Assembly (NCBI GenBank): GCA_046758445.1
Contig: JBHIAE010000069.1
Coordinates: 1-13,630 of the forward strand
Length of the DNA stretch: 13,630 bases
Source of the DNA: Candidatus Thorarchaeota archaeon
Lineage (GTDB): Archaea > Asgardarchaeota > Thorarchaeia > Thorarchaeales > Thorarchaeaceae
Reading direction: 5' to 3'
The translations under genes were made by a program, and so were the position numbers. Shown piece after piece: positions 422-12,871 of the stretch (within the stretch, counting starts at the first letter, position 1; every line of letters begins with the position of its first letter). The notes beneath the pieces were generated by a model, which saw only the letters and a program-made list of their open reading frames with translations, searched no databases and was not told the origin of the DNA.

Positions 422-1596
422 CCAAGGATCCAATGACGCTAATTGATGAATACCTCGAAAGAGTCAAGGTCTACTTGCCACTGGACAGTGAAAGCACACT
501 AATCGAGATTCGTACTCACCTGATTGAAGAGGCCGAGGCGATTGGAATTGGAGAAATCACTGTAGGTACAGCTCTGATGGCCATTGAGCGCATGGGCGAT
601 CCGAAGACTGTTGCCAGTGAGTACGCTGGAACTGGAAAGAGAGTCGGCTTAGTCCCGGCAGAATACACCCAGCCAGTGCTCCGAATCCATGGGGTTCTCG
701 TTGGTCTTGGACTTGCGTTCGTAATAGCCGCATATGTCATTGGTAGTGCATTTCTGGTGCATTTCGGAATCATCAGCGAAGTCGATAACTGGCCGTTCAG
801 TCTTCCCTTGATGATACTTGTCAATGTCATCTTCGTAGCCTTGATCATTGGGGGCGTAACACTTGCAGACAAGGAGAAGATGCCTTCTGAGAAGACCGCC
901 CTGGAGAGCTTCCTTGGGATTGGCACTGAGGGATTCAGACCCAAATATCGATCTGATGCTGTTGGAGATCTCGTCGGCGGGATGATCTTCGGATTCATTC
1001 TTCTTCTCCCCGAGGTCCGAGTACTCTACTCTCCTGCATTCGTGCCCTTTGTGACGACGATGGCCGGACTAGTGTTCCTAGGAGCACTCAAGGGTGCAAT
1101 GTTCCTGATTGGTGGTGAGAACAACCTCAACCTCATCTTTGAGGCCGGTCTTAGCGCAGTGTGGATCCTCTTCTCGACGCTCTTGATCAACGTCGGGTTT
1201 CCGTTAGACTATATCTGGGTGAACGAGAATGGAGTCTGGGGCCTGTTCAACATAACCGAGTTCTTCGTTGAGAACGAGATACCATTCATTTCGTTTGACC
1301 TGATCTGGACCTTCATCATCTTCATAATCGTGGTGCTTAGCACCTGGAGGCTGATTGTGGCATCCATGAAAGTCCCCATGTATCTTGGACGTGGTAGAGG
1401 CCTGTGGTGGCAAGGCGACTGGGGCAAGAGGAGTCAGAAGGGCCCTGGTGGTTGTTTCGGACGTGGTAGAGGCCAGTGGCGACAAGGTGACTGGGATAAG
1501 AGGCGCCAGAAGGTCTATGATGATCCTCTGGAGCGCGACCGTGAAGATAGAAACAACGATTCTCAGACATACCAGGATGGATACATGGGCAACTGA
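418..1596 (+). CDS. Multi-pass membrane protein with N-terminal HAAS/DUF1700-like helical domain (PadR partner)
   Basis: The N-terminus (IDEYLERVK..L..EIRTHL..E..AIERMGDPKTVASEY) has the pattern of PadR-associated HAAS domains. About 6-7 hydrophobic segments follow. It is translationally coupled to padR, with SD GGAGGT upstream. Confidence 0.8.
   Translation: MTKDPMTLIDEYLERVKVYLPLDSESTLIEIRTHLIEEAEAIGIGEITVGTALMAIERMGDPKTVASEYAGTGKRVGLVPAEYTQPVLRIHGVLVGLGLAFVIAAYVIGSAFLVHFGIISEVDNWPFSLPLMILVNVIFVALIIGGVTLADKEKMPSEKTALESFLGIGTEGFRPKYRSDAVGDLVGGMIFGFILLLPEVRVLYSPAFVPFVTTMAGLVFLGALKGAMFLIGGENNLNLIFEAGLSAVWILFSTLLINVGFPLDYIWVNENGVWGLFNITEFFVENEIPFISFDLIWTFIIFIIVVLSTWRLIVASMKVPMYLGRGRGLWWQGDWGKRSQKGPGGCFGRGRGQWRQGDWDKRRQKVYDDPLERDREDRNNDSQTYQDGYMGN
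1387..1513 (+). repeat. Intragenic direct repeat, 2 x 55 nt, period 72 nt
   Basis: 1387-1441 and 1459-1513 match at 47/55 positions. They encode GRGRGLWWQGDWGKRSQK and GRGRGQWRQGDWDKRRQK. Confidence 0.9.
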
Positions 1597-1647: not shown

Positions 1648-1866
1648 CTATTCAGGTTTGACCTTCTGCCCTCTCTTTTTCGCCTCGAAGAACGAAATGA
1701 CAAAGCCGAGCACAATCACTGCATCCACGAACAAGGCAACCTCGAACGGGAAGACCATGAAGATACTGATTACAAGGACGGCAAGAACGAAAACCGACAG
1801 AAGCATCATAATGCACTCGTTCTCATCTGTTGCAAGAGGGAACAATCCCCATGCCAAGTCATTCAT
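1648..1866 (-). CDS. Small hypothetical two-TM membrane protein (72 aa)
   Basis: Two hydrophobic helices and a basic tail (KKRGQKVK). ATG at 1866 is preferred because the longer ORF start runs through the tRNA remnant. Confidence 0.6.
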   Translation of the reverse strand: MNDLAWGLFPLATDENECIMMLLSVFVLAVLVISIFMVFPFEVALFVDAVIVLGFVISFFEAKKRGQKVKPE

Positions 1867-1920
1867 GGTTTTCTTCAGTCCACAACCCTGCTGATGACGA
1901 TGGTTCAGAAATGAAAGAAC

Positions 1921-1955
1921 CGATGCGGCGGTGTAGTTTCGAACTGCGGATACAC
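1921..1955 (-). repeat. Degenerate copy of the tRNA-Phe 3' end (att-like remnant)
   Basis: CGATGCGGCGGTGTAGTTTCGAACTGCGGATA versus the reverse complement of spliced tRNA-Phe, TGGTGCCGCGGCGCGGATTTGAACCGCGGACA, gives 22/32 ungapped. Eight of the 10 mismatches are transitions, and the orientation is the same as the tRNA. Confidence 0.65.
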
Positions 1956-2253
1956 CATGTGAATTCTGGTCGAAATTCACAATAAACAGTTGGGCCAGTC
2001 TTAGACGTCACTCCTCCTATGAACAACCCAACATTTGCACTACTGTGGCTCCGCATTTCCGAGGGTTGAATTGACTAGAAGGAAGCCATATCTCGACTGG
2101 TGGTGGTCTGCAATGACCTAGAACGAGGGAAGAATCCTTGCTCTCTTCAATGAGGACAGGCGAATTGGTTAGATACGACGGATAGTGTTCCCCGGGACGC
2201 CGACTTGCTAGGTCGGGGGTATGATATGTGTACATTAGGGGCTGCCTACAAGC

Positions 2254-3864
2254 ATGATTATGACCGTTCCGAGAATCACACTCCGAAGATCCTCCATTGG
2301 CAGGCGCAACCCTGACGAGTGCGACCAACTCATGTGTGATTTCAATTCACAGCTCTTAACGCCAGAATTGCACGACATGGTAGTCAAGGAGCAGCCACCG
2401 ATACAAAGGATGGAGAATCTGGCACAGGTGGCTGAGGACGTCTATGAGAGGGCCATTGGGAAGAATGCACGATTTGTGTTCTGGGAGGTCAATCAAGCCT
2501 ATCAGTCCGATTACACGATAACACCTCAAGGAATAGAGAACAAGCTTCGGGAATGCTTTGGACAGGAGGTGTTTGGTCAGCATATCCGTGTGGGGCATGT
2601 AGACGGACGATTATATCTCTGGAATCCTGACACGAAACCTAACAATCTGCTTAAGGCCTATGACCGCCAATTCTTCTACTTTCGAAGCGAAGACGAACTT
2701 GCACTACTCACGAAGCTTGCCGCACACATGATCCTATCAGACCACCCTTCTCAATCTCTTTCACATTTGAATCGGTTGATGCAACAGCTAGTTCACAGGG
2801 ATATATCGTACCTGAGGGAGAGGAAATCTCGCATTGAGGGGGCTTCCCTACATCTCCTCAGCGATATCTTGGGAATGACTCCGAGTCACCTTGAAGGAAG
2901 AATTGTCAAGATTGCTGGAGCCAATGGCAATGGAGGGATACGAAGCCCAAGATTCCCTGAGAACATGAACCTCGAGATTCTGAGAGCTCGTTTCATAGGC
3001 GTTGCCGTCAGTGATTGTTACATCCCTGAGTCGGGCACCTTGGAATTTTCTGAAGGTAGCCTAGACCGAATAGACCGGTTCAAATGTCTGCTCAGCGAGT
3101 TTGGCATGGCACATGGTAAGGAGTGTTTCTACAAGGAGAAGGGTCATTACAAGCTGTATGTCGCAAGCCCCCTAACCGCCGCACTTCACTTCTGGGAGAT
3201 ACCATCGGGTGACAGAACCATTCTGAACTATGGTTTACCAAGCGATGTTCCGACTTGGTCAAAGAAAGCCATGCGCGGATATATGCAGGAAATGCTAGCT
3301 CAAGAGGGAAACGTGGACAAGAATGGTGTGATTAACTGGACCCGATCTCATGCATTGTATGATGGGCGAAAGGCTACAAAGTATGGATTTCGGTCAAGAA
3401 TATCCGTCGAAACTAGGGAGTTCCTCGCTGAATCCAAACTGACGAGAAAGCATACTGGAATGGTTTCCGAGCGTTCTATTCCCATGGGACAACTCACGAA
3501 GCTAAGTCGCCTATCCGATGAATATCTTTCAAGGATAGCCAATGAACTTCGAAATGTTGTGTTTGCGTATCGAAATAGGCTGATTGACGATGAAAGAACG
3601 ATGAGCTTGAGTCTTCGTATAAAGGTTAAGCTCGACCCAGTTAGAATATCATTCTTTGAGAAATCGGACCGCGTTACTGTCCGATGGCAGGCCCGTGTGA
3701 GCGGACATGAGTCCAAGATTCGAAGCATCATCCTGATTGCCCCGAATTTCGACGTGAAGTATGATGACGCAATTGACTGGCTATTCAAGCAACCTGCTGA
3801 AGGTTTAGCGCCGATTCGATGCCAGCTTGAGCTAGAGGGGTTTGAGCTATCTAGTCAGGGATAA
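2254..3864 (+). CDS. Free-standing two-motif LAGLIDADG (DOD-type) homing-endonuclease-like protein with N-terminal extension; true start may lie further downstream
   Basis: Motif 1-like ARFIGVAVSDCYI (~2986-3024). Motif 2-like LPSDVPTWSKKAMRGYMQEMLAQEGNV (motif ~3277-3315). The spacing of about 95 aa is typical of intein-type endonucleases. No Hint/intein splice motifs are seen. Confidence 0.65.
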   Translation: MIMTVPRITLRRSSIGRRNPDECDQLMCDFNSQLLTPELHDMVVKEQPPIQRMENLAQVAEDVYERAIGKNARFVFWEVNQAYQSDYTITPQGIENKLRECFGQEVFGQHIRVGHVDGRLYLWNPDTKPNNLLKAYDRQFFYFRSEDELALLTKLAAHMILSDHPSQSLSHLNRLMQQLVHRDISYLRERKSRIEGASLHLLSDILGMTPSHLEGRIVKIAGANGNGGIRSPRFPENMNLEILRARFIGVAVSDCYIPESGTLEFSEGSLDRIDRFKCLLSEFGMAHGKECFYKEKGHYKLYVASPLTAALHFWEIPSGDRTILNYGLPSDVPTWSKKAMRGYMQEMLAQEGNVDKNGVINWTRSHALYDGRKATKYGFRSRISVETREFLAESKLTRKHTGMVSERSIPMGQLTKLSRLSDEYLSRIANELRNVVFAYRNRLIDDERTMSLSLRIKVKLDPVRISFFEKSDRVTVRWQARVSGHESKIRSIILIAPNFDVKYDDAIDWLFKQPAEGLAPIRCQLELEGFELSSQG

Positions 3865-3972
3865 TGGTGCCGCGGCGCGGATTTGAACTCCGCGACTAGG
3901 GGGCGAACCCCCATGTCTCCGCGGACAACACGGTCTTCAGCCGTGCGATCTCCCTGGCTGATCTACCGCGGC
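3865..3972 (-). tRNA. tRNA-Phe(GAA) with encoded CCA and a 31-nt intron at position 53/54
   Basis: Cloverleaf: acceptor GCCGCGG/CCGCGGC-A-CCA; D stem GATC/GATC; anticodon arm CACGG-CTGAAGA-CCGTG (anticodon at 3936-3938). The T arm CGCGG-TTCAAAT-CCGCG forms after removing 3888-3918. Confidence 0.96.
3888..3918 (-). other. Archaeal tRNA intron (relaxed bulge-helix-bulge) in the T arm
   Basis: Central helix CCGC/GCGG with 3-nt bulges GG^A and AG^T, inner helix GAC/GTC, capped by GGGGG-TTCG-CCCCC. Cleavage after the second bulge nucleotide restores G53-T54 exactly. The outer helix is not well paired. Confidence 0.88.
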
Positions 3973-4190: not shown

Positions 4191-4658
4191 CTAGTTGAGT
4201 GCTTGGGCTGCTTCCTTCACCTCATCGAAAGGAGGAAGCTTTTCGGGGTCTTCACTCACCCATCCGTACACTATCTTCCCGTTCCTATCAACGACAAATA
4301 CTGACCGCTTGGCCACATCCTTCATTCCTGCAAGACTCGAATACACGATGTCATAGGCATGAATGACAGTCTTCTCCCAATCAGAGAGTAGTGGGAACTG
4401 AATCTGGTTCTGATCCTTGAACGCCGCATGACTGAATATTCCATCAACGGATATACCGAGGACATTCACTCCCAGCTCGTTGTAGTCGCTTAGAGCGTCC
4501 CTGAACCGACAGAGCTCCTCCTTGCATACTGAAGTGAAATCCGCCGGATAGAACAAGAGGACAACTGGCCCCTTCTTCAGTTCTTCACTGAGTTTGATGC
4601 TCTTGCCGGGGGCTTCGAGAAGTTCGAAGTCTGGTGCACTATCTCCAACACTCATCAT
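4191..4658 (-). CDS. Peroxiredoxin (BCP/PrxQ or AhpE-like)
   Basis: VGDSAPDFEL; FYPADFTSVCKEELC (PxxxTxxC plus CxxxxC); GISVD; FPLLSD; RSVFVVD. The start was moved to MMSVGDS. Confidence 0.93.
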   Translation of the reverse strand: MMSVGDSAPDFELLEAPGKSIKLSEELKKGPVVLLFYPADFTSVCKEELCRFRDALSDYNELGVNVLGISVDGIFSHAAFKDQNQIQFPLLSDWEKTVIHAYDIVYSSLAGMKDVAKRSVFVVDRNGKIVYGWVSEDPEKLPPFDEVKEAAQALN

Positions 4659-4738
4659 TGTAGCCACCTCAAAATCACTATTGTTAAGTCTATGAGGCAC
4701 TTAAGGCTTCAGGTACAGATGTCTACTCGTGGGGCCTC

Positions 4739-10654: not shown

Positions 10655-11680
10655 ATGAACATCGGTCAAGCAATCAAGGAACTTCCAAAGGCCGAGTTGC
10701 ACATCCACCTTCTGGGAGCAATACGTCCAAGTATGCTTCTCTCACTAATCCTAGAAACAGAGCCTGACTCAAGCTATAGAACAGTAGAGGACATCGCTCC
10801 TGTATTTCAGTTCCAAACATTTAGACATTTCATCCTGGCCTATACCAAGGTAGTTGACTATGTGACTCAAGAGAAGCATTTTGAGCAGATCGCTTTTGAG
10901 ATGCTAGAGGATTGTGCCAACTGCAACACGCGCTATGTTGAGGCAAGTTTCTCCGCCATAGACCACATCCAGAGAGGATTGAGTTATGAGAAGATGCTTG
11001 ACGCCATCAACAGGGGGGTACGCAGGGCTAAGCGTCGTTTTGGAATTGACTGCAGCATCAGAATTGACTTTGTTCGCAATGAAGGCCCGAGTGGTGCCAT
11101 GAGAATCCTAGACCTAATAGAGGCGAAACCTGACAATGTCATCTCAGTTGATATTGGGGGCAGTGAGGATCTTTATCCACCGAAACCTTTCGCGAATGCA
11201 TTCCGTCGCGCCCGAAGACTTGGTCTTCACACAGTTGCACATGCGGGCGAGGCGGCTGGTCCGAAATCTGTGTGGGAAGCTATCAAACACTTGAATGTAG
11301 AGCGTGTTGGACATGCGGTTTCAGCAGTAAGAGACCAGAAACTCCTTGACCGAATGAAGTCACAAGGGATTGGTATTGAGTCATGTCCAACTAGTAATCT
11401 AAGGACTGGGGCTGTACAATCTCTGCAGGACCATCCCATAAGAGAGTTCTATGACCGCGAACTCTTAGTGACAGTGAATAGCGACGATCCAACATTCTTC
11501 CAGACAGATCTGAACAACGAATACCTGCAGCTCAATCAGAAGCTGGGCTTCTCGATATCAGATCTGTTTCAGCTGTCTGTCAACGCAATTGAAGCATCGT
11601 TCCTGCCAGAGGAAAGGAAGGAGAGAATGCGAAACTCGTTTAGAAAGGAGGCTGAACAGATCTGCGATTCAGTTGATTGA
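10655..11680 (+). CDS. add: Adenosine/adenine deaminase
   Basis: LPKAELHIHL, HAGE, ERVGHA, CPTSN and VTVNSDDP motifs. Confidence 0.93.
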   Translation: MNIGQAIKELPKAELHIHLLGAIRPSMLLSLILETEPDSSYRTVEDIAPVFQFQTFRHFILAYTKVVDYVTQEKHFEQIAFEMLEDCANCNTRYVEASFSAIDHIQRGLSYEKMLDAINRGVRRAKRRFGIDCSIRIDFVRNEGPSGAMRILDLIEAKPDNVISVDIGGSEDLYPPKPFANAFRRARRLGLHTVAHAGEAAGPKSVWEAIKHLNVERVGHAVSAVRDQKLLDRMKSQGIGIESCPTSNLRTGAVQSLQDHPIREFYDRELLVTVNSDDPTFFQTDLNNEYLQLNQKLGFSISDLFQLSVNAIEASFLPEERKERMRNSFRKEAEQICDSVD

Positions 11681-11710
11681 CGCTTGAATCAGTTTGAAGC
11701 ACAGAACGAA

Positions 11711-11759
11711 TGGTGGACGGGCGAGATTTGAACTGGCGACTTGCGACTCTCTCACATGT
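11711..11759 (-). repeat. tRNA 3'-half copy (copy 4, best preserved)
   Basis: TGGTGGAC-GGGCGAGATTTGAACTGGCGAC; the reverse complement is GTC-GCCAG-TTCAAAT-CTCGC-CCGTCC-A-CCA (T arm, acceptor strand, CCA). It may extend to the anticodon stem (CTCTCACATG). No 5' half is present. Confidence 0.88.
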
Positions 11760-11802: not shown

Positions 11803-12213
11803 ATGAGCGAACCAAAGACAACACCTACGGATGTGGACGTGGAGGACTTCCTAAATGCGGTTGAACATCCTCGGAGAAAAGAGGACGGATTTGAACTCTT
11901 ACGAATTATGAGGGAAATCACTAAGGAAGAACCTGTGATGTGGGGTCCGAGCATAGTCGGTTTTGGTTCATACCACTATAGGTACGAGAGTGGTCGTGAG
12001 GGTGACATGCCTGTCACGGGATTCTCCCCGCGAAAAAGGAGCCTATCGGTGTATATTATGTCGGGTTTCGATGAGTACAGCGATCTCTTAGGAAGACTTG
12101 GCAAGCACCGGGTCGGAAAATCATGTCTCTACATAAACAAACTCGCAGATGTAGACATCTCGATACTCAAAGAGATAATCAAGGAATCCGTTGAGGAACT
12201 TACCAAAGAATGA
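11803..12213 (+). CDS. DUF1801 (YdhG-like) domain protein
   Basis: KT.PT..DV..FL, MWGPSIVGFGSYHYRYESGREGD, GFSPRK, LGKH..GKSCLYI.KL.DVD. The start was moved to ATG 11803. Confidence 0.92.
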   Translation: MSEPKTTPTDVDVEDFLNAVEHPRRKEDGFELLRIMREITKEEPVMWGPSIVGFGSYHYRYESGREGDMPVTGFSPRKRSLSVYIMSGFDEYSDLLGRLGKHRVGKSCLYINKLADVDISILKEIIKESVEELTKE

Positions 12214-12235
12214 AACCAATGAACAACATAAAGAA

Positions 12236-12260
12236 TGGTGGATCGGGCGAAACGCGAACT
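12236..12260 (-). repeat. tRNA 3'-end copy (copy 5)
   Basis: TGGTGGATCGGGCGAAACGCGAACT matches the consensus at 20/25, ungapped. Confidence 0.82.
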
Positions 12261-12316
12261 AGCTCCGAACTAAACTTCTTTCAGAAGTGGTTTCTTAATG
12301 ATTTGGGAAACCACGA

Positions 12317-12817
12317 ATGTCATTTGGCGAAAACATGAAATTGCAATCTATCCAATGTATACATTGGAGAACAAGCCAGGTGAATGAGGATCACTTTCGC
12401 TTGATTGGTGAGGCACTGGCATTCGCTGGGACAGTGATACTCATATCTCCCATTTTAATGCCGCTTTTTCCCAGTTCTGCCCGTCCGTCCGTTTACCGCA
12501 TATATGAATTGTTCTTATTTCTTGGAGTCGTATCAGCCTGCAGTGGAGTGACTATTCTTAGAACGTTCAAAGAGATGAGGCCCTATCTTGCCAAGGCTGG
12601 TGAGCCCATACACTCAGGCAGGACTTGGAAGAAGGAGTCTGAGTCAGGCTTGTTCCTCACCTCATGTGAACGTGTGGTGTCAACAAACCTAGAATCAAGA
12701 GAAACAGTAGAAGTTGGATATAGACTTGTTTCGACAGAAGGCCCCACGTGCAGGGATTGCAGCATCAGGGCAGGGAGGGTAATATTGGAGAGCTTCGGAA
12801 AGCATAGATCATATTGA
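12317..12817 (+). CDS. Hypothetical two-TM membrane protein with C-terminal Cys motif (start uncertain)
   Basis: Two hydrophobic segments and a CRDC near the C-terminus. The ORF fills the space between copies 5 and 6. Confidence 0.6.
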   Translation: MSFGENMKLQSIQCIHWRTSQVNEDHFRLIGEALAFAGTVILISPILMPLFPSSARPSVYRIYELFLFLGVVSACSGVTILRTFKEMRPYLAKAGEPIHSGRTWKKESESGLFLTSCERVVSTNLESRETVEVGYRLVSTEGPTCRDCSIRAGRVILESFGKHRSY

Positions 12818-12822
12818 GGATA

Positions 12823-12848
12823 TGATGAACCGGGCGAGACTTGAACTC
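12823..12848 (-). repeat. tRNA 3'-end copy (copy 6)
   Basis: TGATGAACCGGGCGAGACTTGAACTC matches the consensus at 22/25, and all three mismatches are transitions. Confidence 0.85.
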
Positions 12849-12871
12849 AAAGATGCCTTCAGATTCAAACC

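Follow-up and report, generated by a model that had tools for sequence, protein, structure and literature searches.

Here we describe, in a Thorarchaeota contig, an insertion of about 1.95 kb that carries a single gene, P0001, for a protein predicted to adopt a LAGLIDADG fold, and that supplied the adjoining tRNA-Phe gene with a new 3' part containing a 31-nt intron. We consider it probable that this unit is a free-standing homing-endonuclease cassette, presumably able to cleave its target, which replaces the tRNA 3' end in the manner of the mORFs of fungal mitochondria. The layout is best explained by a cassette spanning about positions 1958-3930 of the window (the whole 13,630-nt stretch of DNA analysed) and consisting of one nuclease gene and a replacement for the last third of tRNA-Phe.

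The insertion and the tRNA-Phe gene

The original prediction, a 1.9-kb unit bracketed by tRNA-Phe and a decayed copy of its 3' end, with the stop codon of the gene directly abutting the tRNA's CCA, is borne out by the coordinates (Table 1). The TAA of P0001 (3862-3864) touches the TGG (3865-3867) that is the complement of the tRNA-Phe CCA, and the unit, 1944 nt from 1921 to 3865, holds one ORF; no recombinase was found in it or among the scanned ORFs of the window. About 30 nt 5' of the P0001 ATG is a TATA-like stretch, rich in A and T, that may, to judge from its letters, be the promoter, and tblastn with longer homologs found no coding remnant, N-terminal or other, in the spacer between the decayed copy and the gene.

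Table 1. Features of the unit at tRNA-Phe (window coordinates)
Feature	Position	Strand	Evidence
Chromosomal left flank	1711..1885		72% identity to G058:C119 and G059:C1 (alignment)
Displaced, decayed, intron-less tRNA-Phe 3' part (about positions 44-76)	1921..1957	-	20/27 identity and collinearity with empty sites
Spacer 5' of nuclease gene	1958..2253	+	Direct sequence reading; tblastn
Free-standing double-LAGLIDADG endonuclease-like gene P0001, 536 aa	2254..3864	+	AlphaFold2, VIA, Foldseek
tRNA-Phe 3' exon (T-loop to CCA)	3865..3888	-	100% identical to intron-less tRNA-Phe of G058, G059 and G061
Hairpin-forming intron, 31 nt, tRNA position 53/54	3889..3919	-	Alignment gap against G058, G059, G061 and G062; fold
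tRNA-Phe(GAA) 5' exon, positions 1-53	3920..3972	-	Identical in relatives

The direct repeat of the tRNA end is real, but its identity, previously put at 22 of 32 positions, is 19/32 when 1921-1952 is aligned without gaps to 3865-3896, and 20/27 (about 74%) for 1924-1950 against the intron-less tRNA; on the letters alone, its score was matched by 15 of 2000 shuffles. We accept the repeat despite this weak identity because it lines up with the 3' part of the tRNA in empty sites, the alleles in relatives for which the original prediction had proposed a search. Specifically, in the relatives G058 and G059 the left flank continues into a tRNA-Phe that lacks the intron, 37 nt separate the counterpart of window 1711-1885 from the tRNA-Phe CCA end, and window 1921-1952 aligns with the tRNA 3' part. 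Since the left flank of these two genomes meets the tRNA at the position of the decayed copy, the intervening DNA was inserted in the window. A third relative, G061, also carries tRNA-Phe without the nuclease gene. The closest relative by left flank, G071 (92% identity), departs after window 1763 into other genes.

The decayed copy probably represents the tRNA's own former end, which had also served as the homology arm on the right; the 3' exon now in use sits inside the segment duplicated by the insertion. Which copy appears native is judged from position, because the exons of the window tRNA are identical to those of the relatives. Equivalent intron-less distal copies occur at five other family loci (L006, L008, L132, L134, L136) and in G062, and their length across related units ranges between 24 and about 40 nt with different end points in the tRNA, as would be expected of homology-based repair and not of a fixed recombinase core. 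A conserved stem once considered in the distal copy (GTGTA..TACAC) was dropped, as TACAC aligns with the variable region of the empty sites.

The tRNA-Phe(GAA) gene itself is 108 nt long, a 77-nt tRNA plus a 31-nt insert between T-stem and T-loop (placed with 1-nt ambiguity), the removal of which restores the 77-nt tRNA of relatives. This intron, which lies within the segment brought by the insertion, had been missed by the original prediction. ARAGORN called only 3889-3971, and at neither threshold did Rfam detect a tRNA in the window, a consequence of the intron. The 5' half of the tRNA is single copy in the source assembly (92.7% complete). At the intron one can draw a CGCG/CGCG helix of 4 bp whose GAG bulges lie on opposite strands; symmetric cuts there would take out 29 nt, whereas 31 nt are needed to match the relatives' tRNA, and no canonical bulge-helix-bulge (BHB) register yielding exactly 31 nt can be drawn at this site.

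Fold and family of P0001

The protein had been described as LAGLIDADG-like, and this holds by predicted fold and by no sequence library. The AlphaFold2 model (pLDDT 87.4, pTM 0.87) confirms a double-LAGLIDADG endonuclease fold at the level of predicted structure: two alpha-beta-beta-alpha-beta-beta-alpha domains are joined by two LAGLIDADG helices in a nuclease core at residues 235-520, preceded by an alpha/beta domain and a helical domain. VIA matched it to 7qsu (Z 18.7, rmsd 2.6, 188 aligned), 1dq3 (Z 17.9) and 2dch (Z 17.3), with further matches to I-DmoI (2vs8, Z 15.1) and WhiA (Z 15.3); the best of these (Z 17-19) are PI-PfuI, I-Tsp061I and the TliVMA intein, and the top Foldseek matches agree. 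An SSV-type split integrase was rejected as incompatible with this fold. By sequence, P0001 matched no family in Pfam, NCBIfam, PHROG or PADLOC (E<=0.1-1), and neither P0001 alone nor a 44-sequence profile found a match in the PDB. Helix 237-254 ends ..VSD(C/G), and helix 337-350 is followed by ..Q(E/D)G; the acids, placed by motif and helix position and not by residue-level superposition, are D254, which is D in 95/95 family members, and E351, which is D or E in 95/95. Compared with P0006 and P0010 the protein is full length, and its chain ends 16 residues past the core, with no C-terminal HTH.

The family was found only in Thorarchaeota, where it is multi-copy and present in 48 of 87 genomes at 0-8 matches per genome (related genomes are not independent samples in these counts), and it comprises at least 243 sequence clusters that lack annotation. 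In the proposed survey of homologs for tRNA 3' ends, about 28 of 95 family loci have a convergent tRNA no more than about 120 nt from the stop, and the tRNAs approached in this way are of at least five kinds, including the tRNA-Ala(GGC) of the array in the right-hand part of the window; some members adjoin 5S rRNA instead. Both points on which the original prediction had staked itself, a tRNA association of homologs and a repeat beyond shuffled controls, are thus observed.

Protein clades match targets (Phe, Ala-GGC, Val-GAC and one tRNA-like gene labelled tX). In a FastTree phylogeny, which gives SH-like supports only, the Phe clade is next to tRNA-Phe in 5/5 members (support 99), the tX clade is equally uniform (9/9, support 100), and the Ala-GGC loci form seven rows within one 10-row clade. 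The tRNA-like neighbour of the tX clade has no match in Rfam, and ARAGORN after systematic intron deletion called it inconsistently, twice as Sec(TCA).

The architecture recurs at eight tRNA-Phe units (L006, L007, L008, L069, L132, L133, L134, L136), in the order distal intron-less 3' copy, 180-510 nt, gene, 0-13 nt, intron-bearing tRNA-Phe; the right flank is syntenic across these loci, whereas the left flank differs. For L008, ARAGORN reported a 2232-nt giant tRNA intron holding the gene, which is not real: a complete tRNA adjoins the gene, and the program had wrongly joined the distal 3' copy onto the 5' part of the tRNA. L069 is a frameshifted gene copy, and 12-codon tail remnants touching the CCA were seen on reading G063, G060, G064, G067 and G018. 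Such a frameshifted copy and tail remnants are decay stages expected of a homing cycle; an HMM search of 14 genus loci found no longer remnant of the nuclease gene.

Homing and its alternatives

We propose that the enzyme would cut an intron-less tRNA-Phe gene, probably in the variable-loop and T-arm region (positions about 44-65), and that the break would be repaired from the cassette-bearing copy, with the tRNA 5' part and the distal partial 3' copy serving as arms. In this way, and without an integrase, the recipient would acquire the intron, a new 3' exon and the nuclease gene, along with a 3' end that is displaced. The tRNA-splicing enzymes would remove the 31-nt intron at the RNA level, and the intron, by splitting the presumed target, may render the resident gene immune.

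Gene and intron co-occur: introns at positions 44-61 are present in 9/9 gene-bearing tRNA-Phe alleles versus 19/48 gene-less alleles in the class (one-sided Fisher about 8e-4, computed over kin alleles that are not independent), and the displaced tRNA-Phe copies lack the intron in 7/7 cases. The intron positions (48/49, 53/54, 57/58, 58/59, 60/61) all fall inside a span of about 13 nt, a spread compatible, as far as sequence can indicate, with one nuclease site of about 22 bp. The intron is not a general immunity device, because some family members adjoin intron-less tRNAs (Ala at L086, Glu at L071, Val at L089). Against homing stand the 19 gene-less alleles that also bear an intron, the failure of every sequence library to recognise P0001, the cleavage of tRNA genes being a prediction, and the decay of the distal copy to about 74% beside an intact P0001 ORF.

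The original prediction left a choice between a cassette captured by the system that built the right-hand array and a self-mobile endonuclease element, and the latter is favoured because of the true insertion, the conserved catalytic acids, the association with tRNA 3' ends and the match between clades and targets. Capture by a trans-acting, integron-like system at tRNA 3' ends, with the LAGLIDADG gene as cargo or a host-useful passenger, seems unlikely to us. It would account for cassettes that are bounded by tRNA 3' copies and lack a nuclease, such as those marked by the right-hand tRNA-Ala-like copies at 11710, 12235 and 12826 and the tRNA-Phe modules, about 550-720 nt long, of G029, G036, G047b and G062, and it is in line with the 'long introns' that ARAGORN called at three further tRNAs of G000; however, nuclease-less cassettes might also be leftovers of gene loss, or these same nucleases might move them in trans. 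Neither the unit nor the scanned ORFs offer a recombinase for such a system, the junction position within the tRNA varies, random cargo would not be expected to track the target tRNA by clade, and the catalytic acids are kept throughout the family.

We give still less credence to P0001 being a domesticated LAGLIDADG DNA-binding protein, WhiA-like or tRNA-linked, with a host function, the polymorphism then reflecting ordinary locus turnover. The intact ORF beside a decayed repeat could point to such a host-beneficial, domesticated role, and the family is large, with many members away from tRNAs, a co-oriented downstream ORF at 25 loci, N-terminal HTH extensions in many members and WhiA among the fold matches. 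WhiA does not retain both metal-binding acids, whereas every family member does, and P0001 has no C-terminal HTH of the kind seen in WhiA-like regulators; we read the likeness, on the model, as reflecting the shared LAGLIDADG scaffold. Patchy presence among genomes, pseudogenes and tail remnants, and the duplicated tRNA 3' end likewise speak against domestication. Finally, an eroded integrase-type element (plasmid or virus) that once sat in the tRNA-Phe 3' part and lost its integrase and all else is very improbable: direct repeats of a tRNA 3' part around foreign DNA are its classical signature, and cases of integration at tRNA genes have been described for Asgard archaea (PMC8813620), but the one-gene architecture of 1.9-2.2 kb recurs at at least eight independent loci in several genera, none of them with an integrase fragment, and the repeats are neither exact nor fixed in extent.

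Known systems and implications

The homing cassette proposed here has parallels in several known systems. The mORFs of fungal mitochondria, known from atp6 of Allomyces macrogynus and from atp6, atp9, cox2 and nad3 of Glomus, are likewise LAGLIDADG (or GIY-YIG) ORFs that have entered a conserved gene in its 3' part; they too bring a replacement 3' end, the native end being displaced downstream of the ORF and decaying, and have ORF-less alleles in close relatives (PMC3630166). In contrast, the window unit lies in an archaeal chromosome and targets a tRNA gene instead of a protein gene, its ORF is on the opposite strand and unfused to the target, its replacement end carries an archaeal-type mini-intron, and P0001 is too divergent for the Pfam LAGLIDADG models. 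In collaborative homing, as described for a free-standing homing endonuclease and an ORF-less intron in cyanophage psbA, the nuclease gene similarly lies outside but near the intron of a neighbouring gene; this intron has been proposed to split the nuclease target, and gene and intron are co-inherited (PMC3984707). The window intron differs in being a 31-nt, protein-spliced (BHB-type) tRNA intron and not a group I ribozyme, and its splitting of the target is a conjecture tempered by the members beside intron-less tRNAs. P0001 also departs from classical intron homing, its gene being antisense to the tRNA and outside the intron.

Among archaeal intron and intein enzymes, I-DmoI, I-Tsp061I, I-Vdi141I, PI-PfuI and the TliVMA intein endonuclease have the same two-domain fold as P0001 (Z 15-19); an acidic residue ends each LAGLIDADG helix, the hosts are archaeal, and conserved genes, for RNA or protein, serve as targets. 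P0001, in contrast, is free-standing, in neither intron nor intein, and has about 230 extra N-terminal residues and no detectable sequence similarity to them. Integrase-type elements (tyrosine-recombinase, SSV-type) also place foreign DNA after a tRNA gene with a direct repeat of its 3' part and rebuild the tRNA with element sequence; unlike them, the window unit has no tyrosine or serine recombinase, its sole gene encodes a nuclease-fold protein, and there is no identical att core of fixed extent. HeimM2, a mobile element of the Asgard archaeon Heimdallarchaeum that carries a gene resembling those of homing endonucleases, lies between a 16S rRNA gene and a tRNA gene, and its authors propose that the nuclease was co-opted for site-specific integration; it resembles the window unit by description, but is 8 kb long with other cargo, and the part of that report drawn on here describes for it no duplicated tRNA end or intron link (PMC8813620).

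The one-gene insert suggests a route by which cassettes spread independently of integrases and by which odd tRNA introns originate. More broadly, and tentatively, the LAGLIDADG family could be the engine of integrase-free cassette arrays at tRNA and 5S rRNA 3' ends, the tRNA-Ala array included, and the selective force behind Asgard mini-introns. On this view every clade would have a single conserved RNA gene as its cutting target; cassettes would enter during repair of the break, with the duplicated 3' end supplying the homology arm, and cargo would stay in place where the nuclease gene is lost. The same enzymes may also have given rise to, and be spreading, the non-canonical mini-introns of 30 nt found in Asgard tRNA genes.

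If the enzyme does cut intron-less tRNA genes, this would explain the pile-up of Asgard cassettes behind tRNA and 5S genes without an integrase, through homing by break repair in which a duplicated gene end is the homology arm. For annotation, tRNA finders miss or mis-call such genes, and assemblies often break there. The unannotated LAGLIDADG clusters, at least 243 in number and with apparently clade-specific, predictable targets, would be candidate meganuclease scaffolds. That tRNA introns protect against mobile elements has already been proposed (PMC3488258), and, if intron-less tRNA genes are indeed cut, these nucleases would provide a driver for the non-canonical tRNA introns of archaea and for their spread.

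An insertion in the 3′ third of a tRNA-Phe gene

As the original prediction had it, the stop codon of the LAGLIDADG-like ORF abuts the CCA end of the convergent tRNA-Phe(GAA), the base after TAA opening the TGG that is the complement of that end. ARAGORN placed the 3′ end of this tRNA wrongly, and Rfam did not detect the tRNA at its coordinates (see table). The window, contig C69, belongs to a Thorarchaeota (Asgard) genome bin of 3.25 Mb, and because the assembly has no other tRNA-Phe 5′ half, the gene must be functional and its insert must leave the RNA. The symmetric structure that can be drawn for this intron, a 4-bp helix with two GAG bulges, yields 29 nt rather than 31 on symmetric cutting, and no canonical bulge-helix-bulge excising exactly 31 nt could be drawn. 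On the minus strand, the 3′ end of the intron duplicates the final bases of the 5′ exon (CGCGGAG twice).

Features of the window, with positions and strand
Feature	Position	Strand	Remarks
HAAS-like gene	418-1596
Direct repeat, 64 nt	1387-1522		81% identical, 72-nt spacing; 3′ end of the HAAS-like gene
Segment aligned with the empty-site tRNA 3′ part	1921-1952
LAGLIDADG-like ORF (P0001)	2254-3864	+	536 aa; TAA at 3862-3864
tRNA-Phe(GAA)	3865-3972	-	108 nt: standard 77-nt tRNA plus 31-nt insert
Hairpin-forming tRNA insert	3889-3919	-	31 nt, between T-stem and T-loop
AhpC/peroxiredoxin gene	4191-4700		between tRNA-Phe promoter and 172-aa gene
Adenosine-deaminase-like ORF	10655-11680	+
tRNA-Ala-like 3′-end copy	11710-11741	-
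ORF	starts near 11804	+
tRNA-Ala-like 3′-end copy	12235-12262	-
ORF	12317-12817	+
tRNA-Ala-like 3′-end copy	12826-12850	-

The direct repeat of the tRNA end at 1921 proved weaker than predicted, with 19 rather than 22 ungapped identities in 32 (20 of 27 against the intron-less tRNA), a score reached by 15 of 2000 shuffles and modestly above chance on sequence alone. We take the copy as real despite this, since synteny with empty sites settles the matter. Such alleles, whose existence in relatives had been put forward as a check, are present in two congeneric relatives (G058 and, at both its tRNA-Phe loci, G059), where a homolog of window 1711-1885 is followed by 37 nt and then the CCA end of an intron-less tRNA-Phe, and the 1921 segment falls exactly on the empty-site tRNA 3′ part. 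Given this collinear alignment, the 3′ third of the tRNA gene has received an insertion of approximately 1.95 kb. With it came a separate copy of tRNA positions ~44-76, now intron-bearing, and the former 3′ part, displaced beyond the insert, is by now roughly as divergent as the neutral flank. The single-contig relative G059 carries two tRNA-Phe copies 183 kb apart (C1:848132-848216 and 1030899-1031021; loci L048 and L049), each preceded by the 1711-1885 homolog; the left flank adjoins one of them and the right flank the other, an arrangement that may reflect a very large insertion, or else a rearrangement, at this one site.

The architecture is repeated at eight further loci from other genera and metagenomes (L006, L007, L008, L069, L132, L133, L134, L136), always in the order distal intron-less partial tRNA-Phe 3′ copy, 180-510 nt spacer, gene, 0-13 nt and tRNA-Phe. 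Upstream of the tRNA, all cassette loci share a syntenic chromosomal side with a 172-aa gene, a methyltransferase and, at some of them, AhpC; the far side varies locus by locus. The distal copies stop at differing tRNA positions, keeping 24 to ~40 nt, and because these ends vary, homology-dependent repair fits better than a fixed-core recombinase. Stages of decay range from a frameshifted nuclease gene (L069) to five gene-less genomes that retain, next to the CCA end, no more than the final dozen codons (..SEG[FY]..) (G063, G060, G064, G067, G018).

The AhpC/peroxiredoxin gene is an indel among relatives: L132 and L136 have it, and G058, G059, G061, L133 and L134 lack it. Nuclease-less modules of ~550-720 nt lie between tRNA-Phe and a second 3′-end copy at L154 (G029), L159 (G036), L170 (G047) and L050 (G062), and the same tRNA-adjoining module sequence is common to G029, G036, G045 and G052. 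In nine bins (G011, G012, G020, G045, G046, G047, G048, G054, G080; loci L141, L142, L150, L166, L168, L169, L171, L175, L182) the contig breaks in or just past the tRNA-Phe 3′ end, as expected if, among the populations sampled, the sequence that follows varies or is repeated.

The P0001 protein and its relatives

None of the sequence libraries recognises P0001, which is full length relative to its homologs P0006 and P0010. In a confident AlphaFold2 model built from 44 relatives (pLDDT 87.4, pTM 0.87), the similarity of residues 235-520 to two-domain LAGLIDADG endonucleases is well above background, with Z scores of 18.7 for the TliVMA intein endonuclease, 17.9 for PI-PfuI and 17.3 for I-Tsp061I, followed by 15.3 for WhiA and 15.1 for I-DmoI. 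The motifs ..VSD(C/G) and ..Q(E/D)G close the two LAGLIDADG-type helices, and the acidic residues at D254 and E351 are retained in all 95 aligned family members; this family-wide conservation argues for an active nuclease rather than a WhiA-like binder. A small alpha/beta domain and a helical domain occupy the first 230 residues, neither with a convincing match; other relatives carry N-terminal, HTH-bearing extensions.

A library-wide search returned 243 clusters at E<=1e-3, and all family members for which the source names an organism are from Thorarchaeota. The family is multi-copy and patchily distributed: 48 of the 87 genomes in the class have a match, the number per genome runs from 0 to 8, and this genome has five. 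Whether homologs adjoin tRNA 3′ ends had been put forward as a check, and among 95 non-redundant loci ~28 have a convergent tRNA 3′ end 0 to ~120 nt from the stop codon, which at L090 lies inside the T-loop. Target identity follows the protein tree: tRNA-Phe neighbours fall in one clade (5/5; support 99), as do nine neighbours of an intron-rich tRNA-like gene (support 100); seven convergent tRNA-Ala(GGC) neighbours from other genomes (L029, L031, L077, L086, L087, L090, L095) lie within one 10-member clade, and two tRNA-Val(GAC) neighbours pair. Since related genomes share target labels by descent and the tree is from FastTree only, these counts indicate clustering, not independent events. More members adjoin tRNA-Glu, other tRNAs and 5S rRNA (by Rfam).

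The remaining clades have no tRNA link, and 25 such members have a conserved, co-oriented small ORF beginning a few bases after the stop (L003, L014, L016, L019, L027, L032, L073, L079, L082, L084, L092, L093 and others); many of these proteins reach 800-1200 aa with HTH-bearing N-terminal parts. The tRNA-like gene of the nine-locus clade (L002 on G000:C91 of this genome, L017, L018, L022, L024, L028, L075, L078, L080) has discriminator G, a long variable arm, a T-loop intron and further inserts; after intron deletion, ARAGORN called tRNA-Sec(TCA) in 2/9.

Introns and a candidate homing route

Across 60 genomes of the class and four metagenome loci, every tRNA-Phe allele with the convergent gene (9/9) has one or two 29-32-nt introns within tRNA positions 44-61 (sites 48/49, 53/54, 57/58, 58/59 and 60/61), whereas complete alleles without the gene have introns in 19 of 48 and none in 29 (one-sided Fisher ~8e-4, a value overstated because kin are not independent). 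The displaced distal copies are intron-less (7/7). Class-wide, positions 10-43 do not vary, whereas alleles of the T-stem and acceptor form a mosaic across genera. These sequence patterns fit, imperfectly, a nuclease that would recognise the intron-less variable-loop/T-arm region, with a resident gene that would owe immunity to its cassette-borne intron; gene-less, intron-bearing alleles would be what remains after nuclease-gene decay. Against the intron as a general immunity stand intron-less tRNAs among the Ala, Glu and Val neighbours (L086, L071, L089).

The enzyme would cut an intron-less tRNA-Phe gene, and the 5′ side of the break would invade a cassette-bearing copy at its tRNA 5′ part. 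From there, synthesis would continue through the intron, the 3′ exon, the nuclease gene and finally the distal copy, to which the other break end, still with its tRNA 3′ part, would anneal. Because the homology needed would be tRNA sequence only, any genome with the tRNA would be open to the cassette regardless of flanking sequence. With repeated events, units would pile up outward, and nuclease-gene loss would leave cargo bounded by tRNA ends. The original prediction had offered either a cassette captured by a tRNA-array system or a self-mobile endonuclease element that cuts tRNA genes. The second is the reading best supported by the insertion, duplication, fold and target associations, and we favour it with somewhat better than even confidence; the cleavage it supposes, the cut site, the immunity and the route of repair we infer.

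Other tRNA-end copies and known systems

The three tRNA-Ala-like 3′-end copies (TGGTGGACGGGCGAGATTTGAAC and decayed versions) each come after one of the plus-strand ORFs at the right of the window. The family clade at tRNA-Ala(GGC) and the members at 5S rRNA bear on integrase-free arrays, an association short of a proven causal link. Elsewhere in this genome, ARAGORN reports tRNA-Val (C8:70841-71536), tRNA-Ile (C25:9538-11106) and tRNA-Arg (C34:3011-4385) with 'introns' of 599, 1472 and 1285 nt, where the program has probably spliced a tRNA to a distal 3′-half copy, as at L008; if so, these are more cassettes bounded by tRNA ends.

The closest analogue of the tRNA-Phe cassette is the fungal mitochondrial mobile endonuclease ORF (mORF), in which a LAGLIDADG ORF in the 3′ part of atp6, atp9, cox2 or nad3 has brought a foreign C-terminal segment and displaced the native one (PMC3630166). 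Cyanophage collaborative homing is similar in that an intron is paired with a nuclease gene outside it (PMC3984707). One Asgard element, HeimM2, has a homing-endonuclease-like gene, placed between the 16S rRNA gene and a tRNA gene, whose co-option for site-specific integration has been suggested (PMC8813620), and disrupted tRNA genes have been proposed earlier as a defence against mobile elements (PMC3488258). Our literature search found no description of archaeal LAGLIDADG cassettes replacing tRNA 3′ ends. Through the cassette, the tRNA introns and tRNA-end duplications of Asgard archaea would be linked to their cassette arrays that lack an integrase.
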